Positions 18,310-28,434 are shown, counted from the first letter of the stretch. The stretch: 32,000 bases of DNA from Candidatus Nanoarchaeia archaeon (GCA_028279745.1 JANQNC010000001.1:720001-752000), one strand, 5' to 3'. Numbers and translations are program-made. The notes: generated by a model from the sequence alone, not told the origin.

Positions 18310-19382
18310 ACATATTAGTCTTAAACGTAGGAAGTTCTTCAGTAAAGTACTCAGTCTTCAAAGATGAAAAAGAAATCTTAGAAGGGCTTGTAGATAAGAT
18401 AGGTGAAAAAACCGGAGAATTCAAAGATCATGAAAGCGTTATTGAACATATCGAGAAGGAGTTAGTTAGCAAAAATATTTCTATTGATGTTATAGGACAT
18501 AGAGTAGTACACGGGGGAAAAGAGAAGGAAAGCAAAGTAGTAGATAACGAATTCCTAAAAGAAATAGAAAAATATTCAGACTTGGCACCATTACACAACC
18601 CTCACGAAATAAACGGAATAAAAATATCAAAAAAATTAGGAGCGTTACAAGTTGCAGTATTTGATACCGCATTCCATTCAACCATTCCTTCAAAAGCATC
18701 GACTTACGCTTTACCAAACTCATTATGTAAAAAATATGGAATCAAAAGATATGGGTTTCATGGAATAAGTCATAGTTATATTGCATCAGTTACAGAAGGT
18801 AAAGTAATCTCATGTCATTTAGGGAGCGGATCAAGTGTTTGTGCGATCATCAACGGAAAAAGTGTAGATACCTCAATGGGATTCACACCCGCAGAAGGAT
18901 TAGTCATGGGAACCAGAGCTGGAAGCATAGACCCAGGAATAATACCTTTCTTAATCGAGAAAGAGGAGTACAGTTGGCAACAGATAGAACATGTGTTGAA
19001 TGAGGAATCAGGTTTGAAGGGATTAAGTGGAAAGAATGATTTAAGAGAGTTGTTAACAGATGACTCAAAAGAAGGGAAACTGGCAGTTGACATATTTGTT
19101 TATTCGATTGTGAAACACATCGGAAGTTACGCAGCTGCAATGAATGGCGTAGATGAAATAGTTTTTACTGCAGGCATTGGAGAAAACAGTTCTGAAATTA
19201 GAAAAAGAGTGTGTAATAGTTTAAGTTATCTGGGAGTTATTGTCGATGATGAAAGAAATACTGAGGGTGATATGCTAATAAGTTCTGACAATTCTAAAGT
19301 TAAAGTCAAAGTGATAAAAACAAACGAAGAACTGATGATAGCAAAAGAGGTAAAAAAAGCAGTGACTAAATCTCATATCTAA
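18306..19382 (+). CDS. ackA: Acetate kinase (compact, 358 aa)
   Basis: The protein contains ILVLNVGSSSVKYSVF, GHRVVHGG, LAPLHNP, VFDTAFH, YGFHGISH, CHLGSGSSVCAI, SMGFTPAEGLVMGTRAGSIDPG, FTAGIGENS and KTNEELMIA. Every canonical acetate/propionate kinase motif I can recall is present. Confidence 0.9.
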   Translation: MNILVLNVGSSSVKYSVFKDEKEILEGLVDKIGEKTGEFKDHESVIEHIEKELVSKNISIDVIGHRVVHGGKEKESKVVDNEFLKEIEKYSDLAPLHNPHEINGIKISKKLGALQVAVFDTAFHSTIPSKASTYALPNSLCKKYGIKRYGFHGISHSYIASVTEGKVISCHLGSGSSVCAIINGKSVDTSMGFTPAEGLVMGTRAGSIDPGIIPFLIEKEEYSWQQIEHVLNEESGLKGLSGKNDLRELLTDDSKEGKLAVDIFVYSIVKHIGSYAAAMNGVDEIVFTAGIGENSSEIRKRVCNSLSYLGVIVDDERNTEGDMLISSDNSKVKVKVIKTNEELMIAKEVKKAVTKSHI

Positions 19383-20406
19383 GTATGGAAGCAATACCTC
19401 CCAAACCATCTAACTTCTTACCTGCATCATGATCAGAACTAATAACGTGAACTTCTGCTTTAAGAGAATCTGCCAGCTTCATCAAGTTGTCTGTTTCTTC
19501 ATAGTTATGATCTTCAGATCGTATATAGTTATCAGTGACTAACAAAGTTTTGACAGCACCTGCCTCTATTGACTTCTTTACTTCATCTAAACCATAAGCT
19601 GCAAGCTTGCCTTTAGAAATTTCTGTTAATAATTGCTCAACAACAATAGTCTCTTTGGCAATCCGATCTTCCTTCAGGAGAGTTTTAACTTCATCTCTTT
19701 TTAAGACTTCATCCACACCTTTTCTTCCGGAATCATTACAGGTAGCATAAAATATTTTTTTAGGAAAATCGTCAGGAACTTTTTTCTTAAATTCTTCCTT
19801 CCAAAAACCAGGACTTGCAACAAGAACGCTGTTAACTTCGTACCTATTTAGGTAATCTTGTAGAAGTTTAACAGTTTCAGCAAAAAAATCACCTTTGATT
19901 ACAGAATCATCACCTTTTTTCTGAACATCGCCCCTAGTTTCAAGCAAGATATCATAACCTGAACTTTTTAGAAGTGCGAAAGTTGCAACGTCACGATCCA
20001 GTATGAGAATTAATGTGTTAGATTTTTGTTTACAAGCTTCATCAAGTTTGTCTAACTGGTACTTAAGCCACTTTTCCTTCGTTATTTTTATTTGTGTGTT
20101 TTCTTCAACATTGAATGAATGGTGTGAGCCAGAAGGAACATCTTCAGGACCTTCTCTAACAACACCCAGAATTTTTAGAACATTTGAAGATTTAGTAAAA
20201 TCAACCTTTTCAACCTCAATTGTGATAAAAACGGGTTTACGAACAACCTTTGCATTTTCAGAATCACCAATCTTTACCTTCCTCATAGTCTTACCACTAA
20301 CTAAATCTTTAGGTTCGACAATGTGAGAAAGGTACCACAAGTCATCTAAGCTTTCAGTAGTAAGCTTAACTTCGCCTTTCTTCAAATCTTTATGAGTTAC
20401 TTTCAT
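19366..20406 (-). CDS. pelA: Pelota / aDom34 mRNA surveillance factor
   Basis: The protein starts MKVTHKDLKKGEVKLTTESLDDLWYLSHIVEPKDLVSG (Pelota N-domain). Its eRF1-like central and C domains follow (ATFALL..., VASPGFWKEEF, AVKTLLVTD). At 346 aa it has the expected size. The ORF-track extension to 20865 is antisense to the PIN gene and was rejected. Confidence 0.85.
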   Translation of the reverse strand: MKVTHKDLKKGEVKLTTESLDDLWYLSHIVEPKDLVSGKTMRKVKIGDSENAKVVRKPVFITIEVEKVDFTKSSNVLKILGVVREGPEDVPSGSHHSFNVEENTQIKITKEKWLKYQLDKLDEACKQKSNTLILILDRDVATFALLKSSGYDILLETRGDVQKKGDDSVIKGDFFAETVKLLQDYLNRYEVNSVLVASPGFWKEEFKKKVPDDFPKKIFYATCNDSGRKGVDEVLKRDEVKTLLKEDRIAKETIVVEQLLTEISKGKLAAYGLDEVKKSIEAGAVKTLLVTDNYIRSEDHNYEETDNLMKLADSLKAEVHVISSDHDAGKKLDGLGGIASILRYEI

Positions 20407-20428
20407 GATAGTTAGTTTAGGGTTGAGG

Positions 20429-20436
20429 TATAAAAA
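20429..20436. promoter_or_regulatory. Candidate shared or bidirectional TATA element between pelota (minus) and the PIN gene (plus)
   Basis: The plus strand reads TATAAAAA and the minus strand TTTTTATA. The centre is ~26 nt upstream of the pelota ATG at 20406 (leaderless) and ~57 nt upstream of the PIN ATG at 20489. Confidence 0.4.
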
Positions 20437-20488
20437 GGTAGTGGAAAATGGGGAAACAAATAAAAAGGACAGAAAGAATTCACATAAT

Positions 20489-20938
20489 ATGAAAGAGTTA
20501 TTAGATTCTTTAGAGAGAGTTAACAGTGTTGACAAATTATTTGACACCTGCTTTATCCTATATGAAATAGAACACAACAAAGGAAACAAGCTGGAAGGGG
20601 GCATGACAAGCTTTACAGCACAAGAACTGATACATGTAATGCACAAAGTAAAACCAGAACTAAAGCTAAAAGCAAGACACTTCTTAAAAAAATGCAACCT
20701 CAAAATTATTGAGATAAATGTTAATCCTGGAAATGCTGAACAAGAAAGAAACTTCACAGAAACAGTAGACAATGAGCTATTAAAAGAGGTTAGAGATCCT
20801 TCAGATGCAGTGTTAATAGCAACAGCAATACAAAAAAAGATAGATAAAATATATACAAGGGACAAACACCACTTATATACAACAGAGCTAGAAAATTATC
20901 TTCAAAAATATGGGATTACAGTATATAATACAATATAA
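20489..20938 (+). CDS. PIN-domain protein (putative ribonuclease), solitary
   Basis: The acidic residues have PIN-like spacing: LFDTCFILYEIE ... DPSDAVLIATAIQKKIDKIYTRDKH. I placed the start at the first ATG downstream of the predicted TATA box, but it is uncertain. Confidence 0.6.
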   Translation: MKELLDSLERVNSVDKLFDTCFILYEIEHNKGNKLEGGMTSFTAQELIHVMHKVKPELKLKARHFLKKCNLKIIEINVNPGNAEQERNFTETVDNELLKEVRDPSDAVLIATAIQKKIDKIYTRDKHHLYTTELENYLQKYGITVYNTI

Positions 20939-20998: not shown

Positions 20999-22198
20999 AT
21001 GAGAAGAAAAGGACAATCTGGGACAGGCACTGCAACATTAATCACAATAATAGCTGCATTAATCATATTATATATATTATTCATACCGCCAGCAGAACGA
21101 GCAAAACTTCTGGGAGATGACAACGAAACAGTAACCGAAAAAGACAAAGACACAGCAAAAAAAACAGAAGAGCTTGAAAACGAAACCTTGTTGCTTGAAT
21201 ATCCTGGAAGCATAACCTATCAACAATCATCAAGAAAAGAGTATGCTGATTTTCCAACAGTCTACCTGTCTAGCCAGACAACATCTGGAGTTATAGGAGA
21301 AGCAAATGCAATATTCGTAGAAAGAAACATATTCAAAGAAAAAACAGAAAGTGTTAGGTTTGACATAGAAAACACAGAAGAAGTAGACAGCATATTTGTA
21401 AGCTTCAAAGCAAAAGAAAGAGATGGGATACTAGTTCTGAAAGTGAATGGACAGACATTCTACGAAAACAGACTAAGAACAACCGCAGTTAACCCGATCA
21501 ACATACCAAAAACTGAACTAGTCAATGGAGAAAATGTATTGGAGATAACAACAAACCACCCAGGATTACTGTTTTGGGATTCTAACAGATACATACTAGA
21601 AAACGTACAAGTAATCACAGACGTGAAACAACTGGGAAATCTAGAAGCAGAAGTAAGCTTCTATGTTGGTGAGGAGAACAGCAACGTAAAAGATGCAAGA
21701 GTAAGCTTCTTCCCAGACTGTCAAACAGGAACAATAGGCAAACTAAACATCGAGATAAACAACAAATTGCTGTACTCAGCACTACCTGATTGCGGAATGG
21801 CAAAACCGATAAGTTTTGATCCAACATACATAAGACAAGGACAAAACAACATAAAATTCACAACAAGCAAAGGACTGTATGTTTTGGATAGCATGAGAGT
21901 AGAAACAACATTAAAAGAACAACTAAACCCAACATACTACTTCAAAATAAGCTCTGACTTAGCTGAAGACATAGAAGGAAACTATTATGATGCAATATTA
22001 ACACTTAACTTCGCAGATGACGATGAACTAAAAGTGGCAGACATAGTAGTTAATGGTGACTATTTCCCAATAAGCCAAAGAGACTCAAAATACGAGGAAG
22101 ACATCTCTAACTATCTACAACAAGGCAATAACGCAATAAAGATAATCCCTGAAAGCAACATGGACATTATCGACATAAGAGTAGAACTAGAGGAATAA
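20999..22198 (+). CDS. Surface protein with an archaeal class III (type IV pilin-like) signal peptide and three tandem ~90 aa beta-rich repeats
   Basis: The N-terminus MRRKGQSGTGTATLITIIAALIILYILFIPP has basic residues, KG|Q and a hydrophobic helix, matching the archaeal prepilin peptidase motif. Three internal repeats share the pattern xVNGxxF...(Q/N)GxNxIxI...IxxIxVE (aa ~116-207, 216-303, 311-398). A TATA box and AGGTGA lie upstream. Confidence 0.7.
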   Translation: MRRKGQSGTGTATLITIIAALIILYILFIPPAERAKLLGDDNETVTEKDKDTAKKTEELENETLLLEYPGSITYQQSSRKEYADFPTVYLSSQTTSGVIGEANAIFVERNIFKEKTESVRFDIENTEEVDSIFVSFKAKERDGILVLKVNGQTFYENRLRTTAVNPINIPKTELVNGENVLEITTNHPGLLFWDSNRYILENVQVITDVKQLGNLEAEVSFYVGEENSNVKDARVSFFPDCQTGTIGKLNIEINNKLLYSALPDCGMAKPISFDPTYIRQGQNNIKFTTSKGLYVLDSMRVETTLKEQLNPTYYFKISSDLAEDIEGNYYDAILTLNFADDDELKVADIVVNGDYFPISQRDSKYEEDISNYLQQGNNAIKIIPESNMDIIDIRVELEE

Positions 22199-22319: not shown

Positions 22320-24251
22320 GTGCTCAGGGAAGCAATAAGAAATAACAGAAATAATTCTTTCGGAAACTTAAACAGAGAAGAACAGATAAGACAAAAAGAG
22401 CTAAGACTAGAAGAAGAAAAACAAAGGCTGGCTGAAAAACAGTTTCAAGAATCAAAACTAGACAAAGCAAAAGCTTACGGAAGTGCTGCCGCAGGAAAAG
22501 CTGCATTTGCAGGTAAGAAAACAATAGGCGCATTAGACAAATTAACGAACGCAAAATACATGGGAAAAACAATCGTGCAAGCACCCATAAAAGTAATAGG
22601 TGGAATAGCAAACAGAGGTGGAGGAATAATATTTCTTGTAATAATCATCATGCTTGTATACGGAGCATTTTCTTTAACGTGGGCAGGACAAGAACCACTA
22701 CAACAACAAGCAGGACTACTGTGGGAAGGAATAAAGAACATAGGGTCAAAACCATTCGAAATCTACAACAACTATCTAACACAACTAGAACTTCAACTAA
22801 ATGGAAGTTTCTATAGAGGTGTCCAAGAAACCAAAGGAAAAGATTTTGGGATAAAGATAGTCAACTTACAGACACCTGTGCTAAAAGACACATTTGAAGA
22901 CCAACCAATAGAGATATGGGGCGACATAGATGGAGAATTTAATGAAGATTTAGTAGAAAAACTAAGCAGTGCAGGAGATATAATGCTAACATGCAGGACA
23001 AATGACGATGAAAACGGAACAGTAAGCCCAGAAACAATATCAATGTGGGATCTATATGCAGGAAGGCAAGGATTTACATGCGAGATACCTGAAGCAGAAG
23101 AAGGAGTCAAAACAGTATTCATAGAAGCAACATATCCTTTCAGAACAACAGCATACAAAGAGGTGCCATTACTGGAGAAAACACAAAGAGACATACTACT
23201 AAAAGAAGCACCATCAGAACTAGACAGGTTTAAGCAAGATCTGGCAGTGTCAAGCGGAGGACCTGCAACAATAGGACTCCACATAGACTCACCTTTCCCC
23301 GTTGTTGTTGATAGCACAGTATGTCCAGGAGAACCCTATGAACTAACAAGTGGATGTTTTGCATTCGCAACATTCTCGATATACCGAGAGACAACATCAA
23401 CAAGTGAACTCTTTAAAGAGATACAGGACATAACAATCTCACCAGAAAACGAAGGGATGATACTGCAGGAATGCAGCCCAATAAGGTTCAACAAAGTAGG
23501 AACTGAATGGAAAGCAGTTAGTGAAGATCTAGAAAAATATAAAGACTACACAGGAACAATAAGTTCAAAATGTGACGTAATATTCCAAGATCCAGATTTA
23601 TTACTTGGGGAAAACAGAGCAAATGCAAACTCAGTTCCGATAAAAATATCAGCAGATTACTTATTCACGAAAAAAATACCAAAATCGATCATAGTAAAAG
23701 AATCAACATACAACCTAATAACTGCAGAAGCATCACAAGTAAAAAAATACTTTGAAAGCAAAAACTCAGAGTTAACAGATTCGGTCGGGTGGATGGAACG
23801 AGAATCCCAAAGAACAAACATACCGCTAACTGTAATAGCAGGAGTTGCGTCACTAGAAAGCAACAATGGAAAAAGCGGATTATCAACACAAAGCAAAAAT
23901 CTTTACGGGATTAAATGTACATCTTCATGGGAAAGTCAAGGAAAGCCTTGCAAAGACTACCCAAAAAGCGACTTAGATAAAACTTACGAACCAGACGCGC
24001 CAAACAAATATAGAGAATATGGAAATTGGGAAGAATCCATAACTGACTTTGTAAACTTAATAAGCACAAGCAGCATATACTCTGAAGCAATGCAACACAC
24101 AGACAATGCAGCAGAAATGCTAAAATACATACACGGATACGAATGCAGAACAGACAGCACAAAATGCGTATACTCCACATACCCCCTATGGGCAAGCGCG
24201 ATAACAACCAGAATCAAAGACATGAGTGAAGAAGAGGTAACAGTAGCATGA
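22320..24251 (+). CDS. Membrane-anchored multidomain protein with a C-terminal GH73-like N-acetylglucosaminidase (peptidoglycan hydrolase) domain
   Basis: The N-terminal segment is charged and helical. One TM helix (GGGIIFLVIIIMLVYGAFSLTW) is followed by a ~370 aa extracytoplasmic region. The C-terminal ~145 aa carries GH73/FlgJ-type motifs: VIAGVASLESNNGKS (compare AALESGWG, putative catalytic Glu513 at nt 23856-23858), KNLYGIK (compare NLFGIK), YREYGNWEESITDFVNLI and YSTYPLWASAI (compare YATDPxYAxKL). The GTG start at 22320 is uncertain, and an in-frame ATG at 22560 is the alternative. Confidence 0.75.
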   Translation: MLREAIRNNRNNSFGNLNREEQIRQKELRLEEEKQRLAEKQFQESKLDKAKAYGSAAAGKAAFAGKKTIGALDKLTNAKYMGKTIVQAPIKVIGGIANRGGGIIFLVIIIMLVYGAFSLTWAGQEPLQQQAGLLWEGIKNIGSKPFEIYNNYLTQLELQLNGSFYRGVQETKGKDFGIKIVNLQTPVLKDTFEDQPIEIWGDIDGEFNEDLVEKLSSAGDIMLTCRTNDDENGTVSPETISMWDLYAGRQGFTCEIPEAEEGVKTVFIEATYPFRTTAYKEVPLLEKTQRDILLKEAPSELDRFKQDLAVSSGGPATIGLHIDSPFPVVVDSTVCPGEPYELTSGCFAFATFSIYRETTSTSELFKEIQDITISPENEGMILQECSPIRFNKVGTEWKAVSEDLEKYKDYTGTISSKCDVIFQDPDLLLGENRANANSVPIKISADYLFTKKIPKSIIVKESTYNLITAEASQVKKYFESKNSELTDSVGWMERESQRTNIPLTVIAGVASLESNNGKSGLSTQSKNLYGIKCTSSWESQGKPCKDYPKSDLDKTYEPDAPNKYREYGNWEESITDFVNLISTSSIYSEAMQHTDNAAEMLKYIHGYECRTDSTKCVYSTYPLWASAITTRIKDMSEEEVTVA

Positions 24252-25171
24252 AAAAAATATTATTTGTTTTGACACTGCTATCAGTACTTATTCTAGCAGG
24301 ATGTGGACAAAGTAGTGAGGGTGATGTAGCAGTAGACGAAAGAGTAAAAACAGGAACAAGAGGAATGCAAATGGAATTCATAAGAGACATCCCTTATAAT
24401 AACGAAGCATACGAACAAGAACAATTTCCACTGGCACTAACAATACGAAATGAAGGGGGATACGACATAACACAAGGATGGTTGGCAATGACAACAGAAG
24501 GACCTGTAGACGTCCTTTCAGTAGAAAGAAGTGGAACTGTCTACCAATTTGCAACACCAAACGACCCCTTGGGCGGAAAAGGGTTTGGAGAGACAGGGCA
24601 GAGTAGAAGGATAGAAGCAAACTTAAGAGCAAATGAAATAGCATTAACAAAAGAACAACAAGCAACAATAACAACAAAAGCATGCTATCAATATCAAACA
24701 ACACTAGTACAAAAAATATGCATCGACCCAGACATAAACCAAGAATTCCTAAGAATCAAACCCTGTAAGTACAAAAAAGACACAGGTATAAGCGGAGGAC
24801 AAGGTGCACCGGTAAGCGTAACAAATGTAGAATTCAAAAGAATACCTTATGGAAATAACATACAACCAGTATTTAAGTTAACAGTAACAAATAATGAAGG
24901 TGGAAAAATAATAGAAGAAGGAAACACTGGGGGAGCGTGCAGTACAGGAATAATTGCAGGAGCTTTCAACAAAATAAAAGCAGAAGCAAAAATAGGAGAT
25001 GAAAGACTAAGCTGTATACAAAAAGATGAAGACAGCCAAATATACATAGAATGTACAGGATCACAAATATCACAAAGCAAAACATCAGGCTACAAAGACA
25101 TAGTTGTTGATTTATACTACGGTTATATAATAGAAGACGAGAAAAATATAAGACTGCTAAAAAAAGAGTAA
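24248..25171 (+). CDS. Putative lipoprotein, paralog A (two CARDB-like beta-sandwich halves)
   Basis: The signal peptide and lipobox are MKKILFVLTLLSVLILAGC. Shared family motifs are LALTIRNEGGYD, ACYQYQTTLVQKICIDP, GGQGAPVSVTNV, FKLTVTNNEGG and VVDLYYGYI. There is an ATGA overlap with the upstream hydrolase gene. Confidence 0.75.
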   Translation: MKKILFVLTLLSVLILAGCGQSSEGDVAVDERVKTGTRGMQMEFIRDIPYNNEAYEQEQFPLALTIRNEGGYDITQGWLAMTTEGPVDVLSVERSGTVYQFATPNDPLGGKGFGETGQSRRIEANLRANEIALTKEQQATITTKACYQYQTTLVQKICIDPDINQEFLRIKPCKYKKDTGISGGQGAPVSVTNVEFKRIPYGNNIQPVFKLTVTNNEGGKIIEEGNTGGACSTGIIAGAFNKIKAEAKIGDERLSCIQKDEDSQIYIECTGSQISQSKTSGYKDIVVDLYYGYIIEDEKNIRLLKKE

Positions 25172-25231
25172 AAACAACAACATTATATAGAAAAGTTTAA
25201 ATAAGCAAATAGACGGATTTAATATACAAAA

Positions 25232-26116
25232 ATGAAAGGAAAAAACATACTACTAACACTAGCAATAATCGCAGTAATTCTAGCAGGATGTGAGCAAGGA
25301 GGACAAGGAACTGAAGGAGACACATCAACAGGAGTATACATAGGAACACAATCAATAGAAATACAATACAGAGAAGGACTACCCTATAGTCCAGTAACAA
25401 TAGATGATAAAGTAGATATAGGTGTTGAAGTAAAAAATTACGGCGCTGAAGATTTAACAGGTGGAAAAATAATGGTTGAAGGGATAACTTCAACAAACGT
25501 AGCAGTACAATCATTAACTGTTGAGGGAAAAGACACATCAGGAAGAAGTTATGGTGGGCCAGAGTACATAACATTCGAAAACATACCAATAGAAGGAGAC
25601 CAATCAATCATAGTAACCGCATGCTACCCATACAAAACAAAACTGGTAAAGAACTTCTGCTATGATCCAACCATAGGAACACAAACAAGAGAAGAAGTTT
25701 GCTCATTCCAAACACAAAATGCTATTAAAGACGGACAAGGAGCACCAATAGCAGTAACAAACGTACAGATAGACAGAAGAGAAAGAGGAGACAAAGCAAA
25801 ACTCATAATAACACTAGAAAACAAAGGAACTGGAAATATAAGAACACCATCAAAACCAACAATAGACTGTGACGGACAAGTACCAACACAAAACGACATA
25901 AACAGAATAAGGATAGATAAAGCAACATTCTCAGGAAAAACAGGAAATTGCAATCCAACAGTTGGTGGGTTGGTTGTAATGGAAAACGGAAAAGCAGTAG
26001 TAAGTTGTGAATATGCAGGAATGGGAACAACAACATCACAAAGACAGCTAGACCTAGAACTATCATATGGCTACGTAAGCCAATCAAAAATAAAAGAAAT
26101 CAAAGTTGAAACTTAA
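25232..26116 (+). CDS. Putative lipoprotein, paralog B
   Basis: The signal peptide and lipobox are MKGKNILLTLAIIAVILAGC. Family motifs are IGVEVKNYGAED, ACYPYKTKLVKNFCYDP, DGQGAPIAVTNV, LIITLENKGTG and LDLELSYGYV. Confidence 0.75.
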   Translation: MKGKNILLTLAIIAVILAGCEQGGQGTEGDTSTGVYIGTQSIEIQYREGLPYSPVTIDDKVDIGVEVKNYGAEDLTGGKIMVEGITSTNVAVQSLTVEGKDTSGRSYGGPEYITFENIPIEGDQSIIVTACYPYKTKLVKNFCYDPTIGTQTREEVCSFQTQNAIKDGQGAPIAVTNVQIDRRERGDKAKLIITLENKGTGNIRTPSKPTIDCDGQVPTQNDINRIRIDKATFSGKTGNCNPTVGGLVVMENGKAVVSCEYAGMGTTTSQRQLDLELSYGYVSQSKIKEIKVET

Positions 26117-26130
26117 AGGAGGACAACAAA

Positions 26131-27090
26131 ATGAAAAAAGCAATATCACTAACATTCTTGTTGGCATCGTTAATGCTACTAGCAGGGTGTGGAGAACAAG
26201 AAGTAACAACAGATGCAACAAAAACATTCATAGGTGGAACAACAGGCTTAGTAATGAGCTTTGAACCAGGCTTCCCACCAGAAGAAGTATTTGATGCAGG
26301 AAACTCACCATTCGACATAGATATCAAACTAAAGAATGAAGGAGAATACACAGTAGCTTCAGGCGACGTAGAAGCAAGAATAGTTGGGCCATATGCACCT
26401 GACTTCGGCGTAAGTGAAAATGACTTAGTAAAATCAAGTGCAGAAAGCATACTGGCAAAATCAACAAGCACAGAAGGACAGGTAATAGAGGGTGGAGAAA
26501 GCCACATAATCTTCACAAACCTAAATTATGGACAAGAGCTATCCGGAAATGAACTGAATAACTATAGAGCAGACATCTGCTACACATACGGAACAGAAGC
26601 AGTAACACAAATATGTGTGCTGAAAGATCTACTAAGAACAACATCAAGCAACATCTGTAACGTAAATGAAGAAAAGGAAGTGAGAAATTCAGGAGCACCA
26701 GTACAGATAACAAAGATAACAGAAAGCAGATACGGAACACAAGACATTGGGATAACCTTAGACATAGCAAACATAGGTGTTGGAGAAGTATACCAAAAAC
26801 AAATGAAATGTGATGCTACACAGCTAAAAGAAAAGAACAAAGTTTGGGTAGAAATAGACTCAGGATTAGAAACCCAACCAACATGTTCTGGATTAAAAGA
26901 TGAAGCAGGAAGCACAATAAGCGGTAATGCAGGATATGTAACATTAAGCCCAGACACAAAAACAACAAGATTAACATGTGTGCAGAAAGCAACAACACAA
27001 CAAGACTTCATAAAAACAGTCAACTTCAACTTAGAGTATGACTATTATGAAACAAAAGACTGGCAGTTGTTAATAAAACATCTAGGATAA
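26131..27090 (+). CDS. Putative lipoprotein, paralog C
   Basis: AAGGAGG at 26116-26122 precedes the ATG. The signal peptide and lipobox are MKKAISLTFLLASLMLLAGC. Family motifs are IDIKLKNEGEYT, ICYTYGTEAVTQICVLKD, NSGAPVQITKI, IGITLDIANIGVG and FNLEYDYY. Confidence 0.75.
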   Translation: MKKAISLTFLLASLMLLAGCGEQEVTTDATKTFIGGTTGLVMSFEPGFPPEEVFDAGNSPFDIDIKLKNEGEYTVASGDVEARIVGPYAPDFGVSENDLVKSSAESILAKSTSTEGQVIEGGESHIIFTNLNYGQELSGNELNNYRADICYTYGTEAVTQICVLKDLLRTTSSNICNVNEEKEVRNSGAPVQITKITESRYGTQDIGITLDIANIGVGEVYQKQMKCDATQLKEKNKVWVEIDSGLETQPTCSGLKDEAGSTISGNAGYVTLSPDTKTTRLTCVQKATTQQDFIKTVNFNLEYDYYETKDWQLLIKHLG

Positions 27091-27120: not shown

Positions 27121-28434
27121 TTATTTTCCTAAAGAAATATCTTCGTCTTCTAAATTAGAAAGTTCCGTGAAATCTGAGGCGAGACGCTTAATAATCTCCT
27201 GTTCTTTCCTTTCTTTAGCTTTAATTACACGATTAAGATGATCAACATGATCATTTAACTCAGAAATTCTAGACTTATAATCTATCTCTAGTTCCACATT
27301 GTCTTTGCTCATGCTGCTAATTTCTTGATTGAACTTTTTCTTAGCAGACTCAAGACTGTTTTCAAAAAATAGCTGTTTGTCTAAAAGTTCCTTATTTTTC
27401 TTCTTCAAAAGCTCTTTAAGCTCAGAAACAGTCAAATTGAGATTGTCAACCTCTTCGATAAGGTGCTTATTTTCTTTGTCAAAAACAGATAATCTTGCCT
27501 TAGAAGCGTCAAGCTCATCCTCAAAGTTCTTGTTCTTTCTTTCATCAACATTAAGCCTTTCCCGATAAGAGATCATATCATTATTAAGATGGATTATCTG
27601 CTGTTCTTTCTCGATTATATTTCTTTTAAGCGAGTCTATATTTACATTAAGTTTTTCAACCAACTGATCTCTCTTTTTTAATTCAGTATGAAGACTTTGA
27701 AGCTGCAAAAGCTTTTCCTTAACATTACCCTTCAAAGAATCAACATCAGTATTAAGATGCTTAAGCTGCATATTCTTTTCAGTGTTGAATCCAGATAACT
27801 CTTGGTTGAGCTTGTCAAATTTAAGGAGTTCATTTTCTAAAACTCTTATTTGCTTCTTTAAACCATCTGAAGCAGAAATCTCATAGTCAAGTCTATCGGT
27901 AATTCTTCCTTTCTTAGCAGATAAAAAAGTAAGTTGTCTCCCTTTAACTTCCAAATCTTTAGAAAGCATGTTGTTAATCTTATTCATCTTAACAACTTCA
28001 GAACTCAACAGGGCAATCTCTTTCTTAGCTTGTTCAGCAACACTTGCAAAAGTATCCTTATCTTGAGAACACATCTTCAGCTTTTTTTCAAGGAAGTCAC
28101 ATCTTTTAGACAAGTCTTTGATTGTTGAGTTAAGTTGTTTAGTATCTTTAGATAATAAAGTGTTTTCTTCAAGAATATTAAGATGTTTGTCTTCTTTCTT
28201 TCTTTGTGTGGATAACTCTTTAGTTAATCTGTCATTTAATGAGTTTAATTTGATTAAATCTTGTTTGAAAAGACTAACTTGACTTCTAAGCTCTTTATTT
28301 TCAGCCAGTAAGTCATTAATTTCAGAATCAAACTCTTGTTTTCTTCCAAGTTTTGATCTAAGTTCTTCCAATTCGGAATTCAACTTATTAAAAGACTCAG
28401 AAATAGGATCCAAAACCTCTTTTTTTCTTTTCAT
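27121..28434 (-). CDS. Hypothetical all-coiled-coil protein (437 aa)
   Basis: The sequence is heptad-like and rich in Leu/Lys/Glu/Asn/Ser along its whole length. It has no TM segment, no Walker motif and almost no Pro/Gly. It starts 6 nt after the rfcS stop, so it is probably co-transcribed. Confidence 0.7.
   Translation of the reverse strand: MKRKKEVLDPISESFNKLNSELEELRSKLGRKQEFDSEINDLLAENKELRSQVSLFKQDLIKLNSLNDRLTKELSTQRKKEDKHLNILEENTLLSKDTKQLNSTIKDLSKRCDFLEKKLKMCSQDKDTFASVAEQAKKEIALLSSEVVKMNKINNMLSKDLEVKGRQLTFLSAKKGRITDRLDYEISASDGLKKQIRVLENELLKFDKLNQELSGFNTEKNMQLKHLNTDVDSLKGNVKEKLLQLQSLHTELKKRDQLVEKLNVNIDSLKRNIIEKEQQIIHLNNDMISYRERLNVDERKNKNFEDELDASKARLSVFDKENKHLIEEVDNLNLTVSELKELLKKKNKELLDKQLFFENSLESAKKKFNQEISSMSKDNVELEIDYKSRISELNDHVDHLNRVIKAKERKEQEIIKRLASDFTELSNLEDEDISLGK

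Follow-up and report, generated by a model that had tools for sequence, protein, structure and literature searches.

What purpose would a row of membrane-anchored proteins, one of them ending in a bacterial-type peptidoglycan hydrolase domain, serve at the surface of an archaeon, and are these proteins related to one another? The question is raised by a 32,000-nucleotide stretch of DNA from a Candidatus Nanoarchaeia archaeon (GCA_028279745.1, JANQNC010000001.1:720001-752000; hereafter the window, whose positions serve as coordinates). Five close-set genes on its plus strand encode p399 (a protein of 399 amino acids, aa), a 643 aa hydrolase, and three lipoproteins, LP1, LP2, and LP3. Together these five genes, which lie on a contig of 1.3 Mb, make up a cell-surface cluster of a Woesearchaeota-type (DPANN) archaeon, and they are flanked in the window by two archaeal housekeeping genes, one Pelota-like and the other for the RFC small subunit. 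The initial annotation had proposed that one two-domain module is present here four times in tandem, as the three lipoproteins plus the stalk of the hydrolase. By sequence comparison, three of these copies are certain, and the second stalk domain is a probable copy, though a very distant one, of the lipoprotein module. The reading that we favor for the cluster as a whole, at a probability of about 0.45, is that it encodes a conserved surface assembly that would present exchangeable peptidoglycan-lytic heads to bacterial walls.

The features on which the argument draws are the following.

20999-22198, plus strand: p399 (399 aa), the upstream partner gene, without a Pfam or NCBIfam family
22320-24251, plus strand: the 643 aa type-II membrane protein, with a charged cytoplasmic N-terminus, one transmembrane helix, a stalk, and a GH73 head
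22620-22676, plus strand: predicted transmembrane helix of the hydrolase, aa 101-119 (Kyte-Doolittle window score 2.54)
22689-23729, plus strand: stalk module, aa 124-470, a separate conserved family by jackhmmer
23196-23714, plus strand: second stalk domain, approximately aa 293-465, with remote similarity to lipoprotein domain 2 by hhalign
23796-24224, plus strand: predicted GH73 N-acetylglucosaminidase domain, aa 493-635, matching PF01832
24248-24251, plus strand: ATGA overlap between the hydrolase stop and the LP1 start, read in the sequence
24248-25171, plus strand: LP1, 307 aa, lipobox Cys19, the first-position lipoprotein type, with two β-sandwich domains
25232-26116, plus strand: LP2, 294 aa, lipobox Cys20, the middle-position lipoprotein type
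26131-27090, plus strand: LP3, 319 aa, lipobox Cys20, the last-position type and the most conserved and most distinct paralog

The three lipoproteins are co-directional, and all three carry an N-terminal signal peptide followed by an L-A-G-C lipobox (residues 16-19 or 17-20). LP1 and LP2 align by BLASTP with 29% identity over 213 aa (expectation value, E, 4e-21), and LP3 is matched by LP1 with an E of 4e-9 and by LP2 with an E of 7e-9. These scores identify LP1, LP2, and LP3 as genuine paralogs and agree with the proposed serial duplication of one lipoprotein module. That no repeat would be visible at the DNA level is also essentially right, the only in-register remnants being the lipobox codons and the GAPVxVT codons.

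The ordered motifs that had been read across the three proteins turn out to be family-wide conserved columns in an alignment of 123 sequences. The invariant columns are N68, G70, C146, C158, C173, P188, C256, and C269, and the near-invariant ones are Y147, Y149, T151, G219, C231, Y291, and Y293. The NxG motif thus corresponds to N68/G70, CYxYxT to C146/Y147/Y149/T151, GAP to P188, the second NxG to G219, and the terminal YxY to Y291/Y293. LP1, LP2, and LP3 all display the complete signature of NxG, CYxYxT, GAP, six cysteines, and terminal YxY. The six cysteines conserved in the mature lipoprotein (C146, C158, C173, C231, C256, and C269) correspond to those pointed out earlier and may form disulfides. 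A concern voiced with the original proposal, that such motifs could be generic features of β-sandwich folds, is justified for the NxG strands, which appear to be a generic CARDB-like feature: 9 of the 123 family members have weak matches to PF07705 (best E 4e-4), with no match in LP1, LP2, or LP3 at E ≤ 1. It does not extend to CYxYxT, QGAPVxVT, and the cysteines, which are specific to the lipoprotein family.

Pfam and NCBIfam provide no family match for LP1-3 beyond the signal peptide, and a word-indexed homolog search returned one homolog for LP1. An exhaustive search of 1.84 billion representatives with a profile of LP1-3 and one ortholog, in line with the family and partner search that had been suggested, yields 2,754 cluster representatives at E ≤ 1e-3 and 2,108 at E ≤ 1e-10. 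A recurrent gene row is seen in approximately 30 related loci. The best 150 family matches are mostly 290-340 aa in length, and nearly all have a lipobox.

The two-domain architecture first read from the sequence is reproduced by an AlphaFold2 model of LP1 built with the 123-sequence alignment (pLDDT 93.5, pTM 0.86), in which two β-sandwich domains span approximately aa 36-160 and 178-304. Mutual duplication of the two domains is not demonstrable (hhalign E 0.016 for lipoprotein domain 1 against domain 2). Foldseek comparison of the model with the PDB and BFVD retrieves generic Ig-like/MG/FN3 tandems only, at TM-scores of approximately 0.2 (integrin calf/thigh domains, complement MG domains, and RbmA), and no functional lead emerges from the fold in these two databases. 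Sequence searches of the PDB likewise return nothing significant, whether for p399 or for the profiles of the lipoproteins and the stalk.

The related loci place the three paralogs in a wider context. Eighteen were obtained by scanning GTDB species genomes with the lipoprotein alignment, and 11 more come from metagenome contigs encoding family members. All 18 genome loci derive from Woesearchaeota/Nanoarchaeia metagenome-assembled genomes except four, which are labelled "uncultured Methanosarcinales" and have the same synteny. In almost all loci, the gene row consists of (i) Pelota on the minus strand, (ii) a p399 homolog, (iii) a stalk-containing membrane protein of 500-1,170 aa, (iv) one to five lipoproteins, and, further along, (v) RFC on the minus strand. 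An array usually opens with an LP1-type lipoprotein. A variable number of LP2-like or LP1-like ones follows, and every complete array closes with an LP3-type gene, which scores 110-239 bits to LP3 versus approximately 10-70 bits to LP1 or LP2. Since the paralog types keep their order across lineages, the duplication is older than the divergence of these lineages: an ancient tandem duplication gave rise to the lipoproteins, whose order has been fixed since. The presumed age of the copies is borne out in the same manner: LP1, LP2, and LP3 are each matched by a separate ortholog, with the order unchanged, in the closest relative (L001) and across related loci, which favors differentiated subunits over interchangeable variants. 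A 4-nt stop/start overlap that leads from the stalk gene into the signal peptide of the first lipoprotein recurs in 18 of 28 loci; in the window, the ATGA overlap makes translational coupling of the hydrolase and LP1 likely. The cluster appears to be vertically inherited. A mobile-element or conjugation-type origin of the hydrolase and lipoproteins was considered and rejected, as these genes always lie between Pelota and RFC, with no ATPase or relaxase nearby.

Two observations on these loci stand apart from the argument. The four Methanosarcinales-labelled loci (L004, L009, L010, and L011) carry the full Woesearchaeota-type gene row, and the "uncultured Methanosarcinales archaeon" label of these four genomes is probably a placeholder or a misassignment. 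Several middle-position lipoproteins (L008:12138-13484, L009:6729-8036, L011:4460-7140, and L012:11701-13068) contain an insertion of approximately 110-140 aa at the same point inside domain 1, between profile positions ~70-96 and ~99-108.

The 643 aa protein combines its single predicted transmembrane helix with a C-terminal GH73 glucosaminidase. The head matches PF01832 with an E of 5.3e-15 and 56.6 bits, against a gathering cut-off of 30.2, and also matches phage endolysin families (PHROGs). It aligns to the solved FlgJ structures 3vwo and 5dn4, with "SLESNNGKS" opposite "ALETGWGKS"; the Glu of this aligned motif we take to be the catalytic residue. The head is accordingly annotated as a predicted GH73 N-acetylglucosaminidase. 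A phage origin of the cluster was rejected, the endolysin-family matches being confined to the GH73 head. In P0004, the closest ortholog, a VanY/M15 peptidase takes the place of GH73 at the end of the protein, while the stalk retains 49% identity.

The stalk between helix and head forms a family of its own. Word-indexed homolog searches found one homolog for the hydrolase and none for the stalk profile, and a profile search of the genome contigs with the stalk alignment found no relatives; with the stalk (aa 124-470) as the jackhmmer query, the middle protein is retrieved from 14 loci of a first set and from 21 of an enlarged set. In these relatives, the stalk module lies between the last transmembrane helix and the enzyme head, or is C-terminal. 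Three to seven transmembrane helices are predicted before the stalk in most lineages (L003, L004, L006, L007, L009, L010, L012, L015, L016, L019, L022, L027, and L028) and a single one in the window, L002, and L017. The polytopic part of these proteins, which matches no family, could act as a channel or as an enzyme.

Whether this stalk is a fourth copy of the lipoprotein module is the point at which the initial annotation, which had one copy fused to a transmembrane anchor and an enzyme, stands only in part. The competing explanation is that the likeness is a convergent, generic β-sandwich feature and that the module occurs three times, not four. Much of the evidence agrees with convergence and weighs against a fourth copy. 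BLASTP of the hydrolase against LP1, LP2, and LP3 is not significant, the lipoprotein hidden Markov model (HMM) has no match in the hydrolase at E ≤ 10, and jackhmmer from the stalk draws in no lipoprotein at E ≤ 1. The pairwise hhalign comparison that had been proposed as a check is weak in its default local form (E 0.004, probability 8.5%, 45 columns), and domain 1 of the lipoproteins against domain 1 of the stalk is not significant (E 0.06-0.5). The conserved cysteines also differ: the stalk family has C102 and C131 in domain 1 in place of the six lipoprotein positions given above, and the stalk counterpart of CYxYxT is FPFxT, without Cys. The NxG strands, being generic to CARDB-like domains, are of the kind that convergence would produce.

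The second domain is harder to reconcile with convergence. Full-length global hhalign of the stalk against the lipoproteins is colinear over approximately 260-275 columns, with an E of 1.4e-5 to 3e-4 depending on the stalk alignment used; when blocks of 20 columns were shuffled, the real score was reached by 0 of 150 controls in one version and by 1 of 100 in another, the latter a point for convergence. Lipoprotein domain 2 against stalk domain 2 gives a global E of 5.7e-6 and a local E of 1.6e-5, and none of 150 block shuffles reaches the real score (null 12.4 ± 5.3 versus 31.7). An independent MAFFT alignment gives E values of 1.6e-5 and 2e-4, so that an E of 6e-6 to 2e-5 is obtained with two independent alignments. 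Control pairs are 3-5 orders of magnitude weaker (E 0.014-0.16 across domains and 0.16-0.99 with p399). The alignment is colinear motif to motif, pairing GAPVxVT with GPVxIG as well as the terminal YxY strands, and on the stalk HMM the real lipoproteins score approximately 3 bits above reversed or shuffled ones. Both modules are, in addition, equal in size, N-terminally membrane-anchored, and able to bear a C-terminal enzyme head of the same kind. An AlphaFold2 model of the stalk from a two-sequence alignment (pLDDT 40.7) is unusable for fold comparison. On balance, stalk domain 2 is likely a true distant homolog of lipoprotein domain 2, homology of the two first domains is doubtful, and convergence is an unlikely explanation of the whole. 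Of the four-fold module, the three lipoproteins are thus retained together with a remotely similar C-terminal domain of the stalk, and the N-terminal stalk domain is not.

A link between lipoproteins and stalk that does not depend on this weak sequence signal comes from the enzyme heads. After the stalk, GH73 in the window and VanY/M15 in P0004 are joined by SLT in L010 and L028, by divergent SLT-like sequences in L004 and L018, and by Amidase_2 in L008 (E 7e-30). A post-stalk head is absent from L003, L006, L007, L009, L011, L012, L015, and L016. In L012 and L015, the stalk protein stops right after the stalk, and an extended first lipoprotein carries a C-terminal SLT lytic transglycosylase domain, accompanied by DUF2272 in L015; L016 follows these two, except that the contig end truncates its SLT match, which lies below the Pfam threshold.

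L012:10001-11719: SLT-bearing first lipoprotein
L015:9785-13213: SLT-bearing first lipoprotein
L016:9860-11541: first lipoprotein with a sub-threshold SLT match

The head of the L012 lipoprotein resembles that of the L028 stalk protein (E 2e-6), and the lytic head has moved between two carriers, the stalk protein and the first lipoprotein. With SLT on the first lipoprotein when the stalk protein is headless, the lipoprotein module can also be an enzyme pedestal. This shared architecture argues for functional equivalence of the lipoprotein module and the stalk, and it ties the lipoproteins to peptidoglycan degradation.

The remaining member of the cluster, p399, was absent from the initial annotation, as was the lineage-wide synteny. 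In 15 related loci, the gene immediately before the stalk gene encodes a p399 homolog (phmmer E 1e-32 to 3e-75). The N-terminus of p399 comprises a basic stretch, a [KR][GA]Q motif, a hydrophobic helix at aa 11-29, and a "YILFxPP" motif, and the remainder is a predicted extracellular β-rich region of approximately 350 aa. The family consensus (basic stretch, [KR][GA]Q, a polar spacer of 6-8 residues, and hydrophobic helix) resembles a prepilin-type (class III) signal, for which the polar spacer is atypical. As a fifth copy of the module, p399 was rejected on hhalign E values of 0.26-0.99 against the lipoproteins and the stalk.

In the favored reading, all five proteins would be held by their N-termini at the outer face of the archaeal membrane, where p399, the stalk protein, and the lipoproteins may assemble into one hetero-oligomeric pedestal. 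This pedestal would offer an exchangeable lytic or binding head, GH73 in the present case, to the murein wall of a neighboring bacterium, and the outcome could be attachment, breaching of the wall, or scavenging of wall fragments. Inference enters with the physical assembly, its bacterial target, and its role; paralogy, fold, anchoring signals, conserved order and synteny, enzyme families, and head swapping are shown by the comparisons above. Such a role is consistent with published reports in which large extracellular murein transglycosylases of Woesearchaeota and Pacearchaeota are proposed to act against bacteria (PMC8204110, fam00969; PMC9723730), archaeal peptidoglycan hydrolases are described as able to kill bacteria (PMC12352652), and DPANN archaea are predicted to be rich in lipoproteins, which are prevalent among them (PMC12462473).

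Several points weigh against a surface assembly directed at bacterial walls. Several of the post-stalk extensions are Cys-rich or Ig-like sequences that match no model and are not enzymes by any model. We know of no bacterial host of the source organism. In L003 and L006, neither the stalk protein nor the first lipoprotein bears an extension, and the stalk protein has no Pfam match, which means that the conserved core has a role independent of peptidoglycan lysis. The housekeeping neighborhood, together with the presence of the cluster in every related locus that is long enough, would fit a basic envelope structure equally well.

These last points are also where the main rival draws its strength: the lipoproteins and stalk protein would form a basic S-layer-like cell coat of Woesearchaeota, on which lytic heads are optional decorations. 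Persistence of the cluster in the two lineages without a detectable enzyme head suits a coat, as do the weak CARDB matches in the lipoprotein family, since archaeal surface-layer proteins typically combine a membrane anchor with tandem Ig-like or CARDB-like domains, and the fixed paralog order suggests a defined hetero-oligomer. However, the proteins are small (approximately 280 aa when mature) and each is separately lipid-anchored, S-layer models have no match to the lipoproteins, the stalk, or p399, and the recruitment of at least four peptidoglycan hydrolase families on two carriers is difficult to account for if the coat is purely structural. We therefore regard a cell coat as rather unlikely, if the most serious competitor for the function of the cluster.

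A bolder version of the favored surface assembly is somewhat less likely still. The cluster could encode an archaeal cell-contact organelle, with a lipoprotein ring or pedestal, a central membrane-embedded paralog that is polytopic in most lineages, a pilin-like p399, and a swappable murein-lytic or murein-binding tip, by which Woesearchaeota would breach bacterial walls, dock, or feed. If so, it would correspond in archaea to a system for contact-dependent attack or attachment, and it would have no homolog among known secretion or pilus machines.

It is improbable that LP1, LP2, and LP3 act separately, as adhesins or binding proteins that differ in specificity and are redundant variants instead of subunits of one complex. 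An Ig-like fold is a common property of adhesins, lineages differ in copy number (1 to 5), and large insertions or Cys-rich C-terminal extensions are found in some family members, all of which such proteins would accommodate. Yet the paralog types are orthologous across the lineage and keep their array position, the strong conservation of the LP3 type is unexpected for diversifying variants, and the genes are close-packed, with the stalk gene overlapping the first lipoprotein gene. Bacterial peptidoglycan hydrolases are often controlled by lipoproteins, and this, with the housekeeping location and wide conservation, speaks for a cluster that remodels the archaeon's own murein-like wall as an autolysin complex with lipoprotein regulators. 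Such a role is highly improbable, given that murein and pseudomurein are reported only from Methanobacteriales and Methanopyrales (PMC12352652, PMC10117817), that no mur genes occur among the genes examined in the window or related loci, and that the heads are swapped between enzyme classes and sometimes absent.

The favored surface assembly resembles several known systems, each in part. In bacteria, wall hydrolases work with lipoprotein partners, as amidases do with NlpD/EnvC and penicillin-binding proteins (PBPs) with LpoA/LpoB. The present cluster is analogous in encoding a membrane-proximal hydrolase with surface lipoproteins, but it has no sequence relationship to these systems, it occurs in an archaeon without known murein, and its lipoproteins and the stalk of its enzyme are probably distant paralogs. 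Relative to GH73 enzymes such as the FlgJ C-terminal domain and phage endolysins, the window head scores above the Pfam threshold and keeps the Glu motif; it differs in that an archaeal type-II anchor and a two-domain stalk precede it in the same polypeptide, and in that other enzyme classes replace it in orthologs. With CARDB/Ig-like archaeal surface proteins (PF07705), the lipoproteins have in common an all-β sandwich, the "hxhxhxNxG" strand, and extracellular membrane tethering, and they are set apart by their own signature (CYxYxT, QGAPVxVT, six Cys, and terminal YGY), the lipobox anchor, and the fixed tandem order. The fam00969-type transglycosylase proteins belong to the same lineage and are likewise described as anchored or extracellular, with a peptidoglycan hydrolase domain of bacterial type; the hydrolase equivalents in L010, L028, and, in divergent form, L004 bear SLT, and the window protein bears GH73. 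Archaeal lipobox lipoproteins that depend on AliA/AliB (PMC12462473) have a signal peptide and an [L][A/S][G]C motif in common with LP1-3, for which lipidation is predicted; no AliA/AliB gene was identified in the window. Beside the cluster of L027, a gene adjoining Pelota (L027:3011-3808, plus strand) has a product homologous to the bacterial-type prolipoprotein diacylglyceryl transferase (Lgt; NCBIfam E 1.8e-31, under the curated cut-off), which merits mention as archaea are reported to be without Lgt homologs (PMC12462473). The existence of peptidoglycan hydrolases in Woesearchaeota is already known from this literature. In the searched passages of the published accounts of these hydrolases, we did not find a description of the stalk family, the ordered lipoprotein family, p399, the conserved locus, or the exchange of heads between classes and carriers.

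The neighborhood of the cluster offers some further observations. Convergent to LP3, the minus strand of the window encodes a 437 aa all-coiled-coil protein (27121-28434) with weak SMC/Rad50-like matches; it is kept in the closest relative (L001:3420-4712, minus strand, phmmer E 3e-95), and no homologs were detected in the other 18 loci searched. The mechanically called Pelota-like open reading frame (19366-20865, minus strand) is over-extended at its 5′ end by approximately 145 codons, and the extension overlaps an opposite-strand open reading frame for a 177 aa PIN-domain protein (20405-20938, plus strand; PF01850 E 2e-7), which has no counterpart at the corresponding position of the related loci. 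Promoter and terminator scans are uninformative, as their consensus patterns are bacterial and the source is an archaeon.

Woesearchaeota are among the most widespread uncultured archaea, and the idea that they may live on bacteria has so far rested mainly on scattered murein transglycosylase genes. Such enzymes can now be placed in a defined, lineage-wide cluster with the non-enzymatic partners p399, stalk, and ordered lipoprotein array, in which the lytic head is exchangeable, both among peptidoglycan hydrolase families, of which at least four occur, and between the two carriers. Two large families without Pfam or NCBIfam models are thereby defined, the lipoprotein one with approximately 2,750 cluster representatives. 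The cluster is a testable candidate for how Woesearchaeota may attack or attach to bacteria, and it provides concrete targets for structural, localization, and biochemical work.

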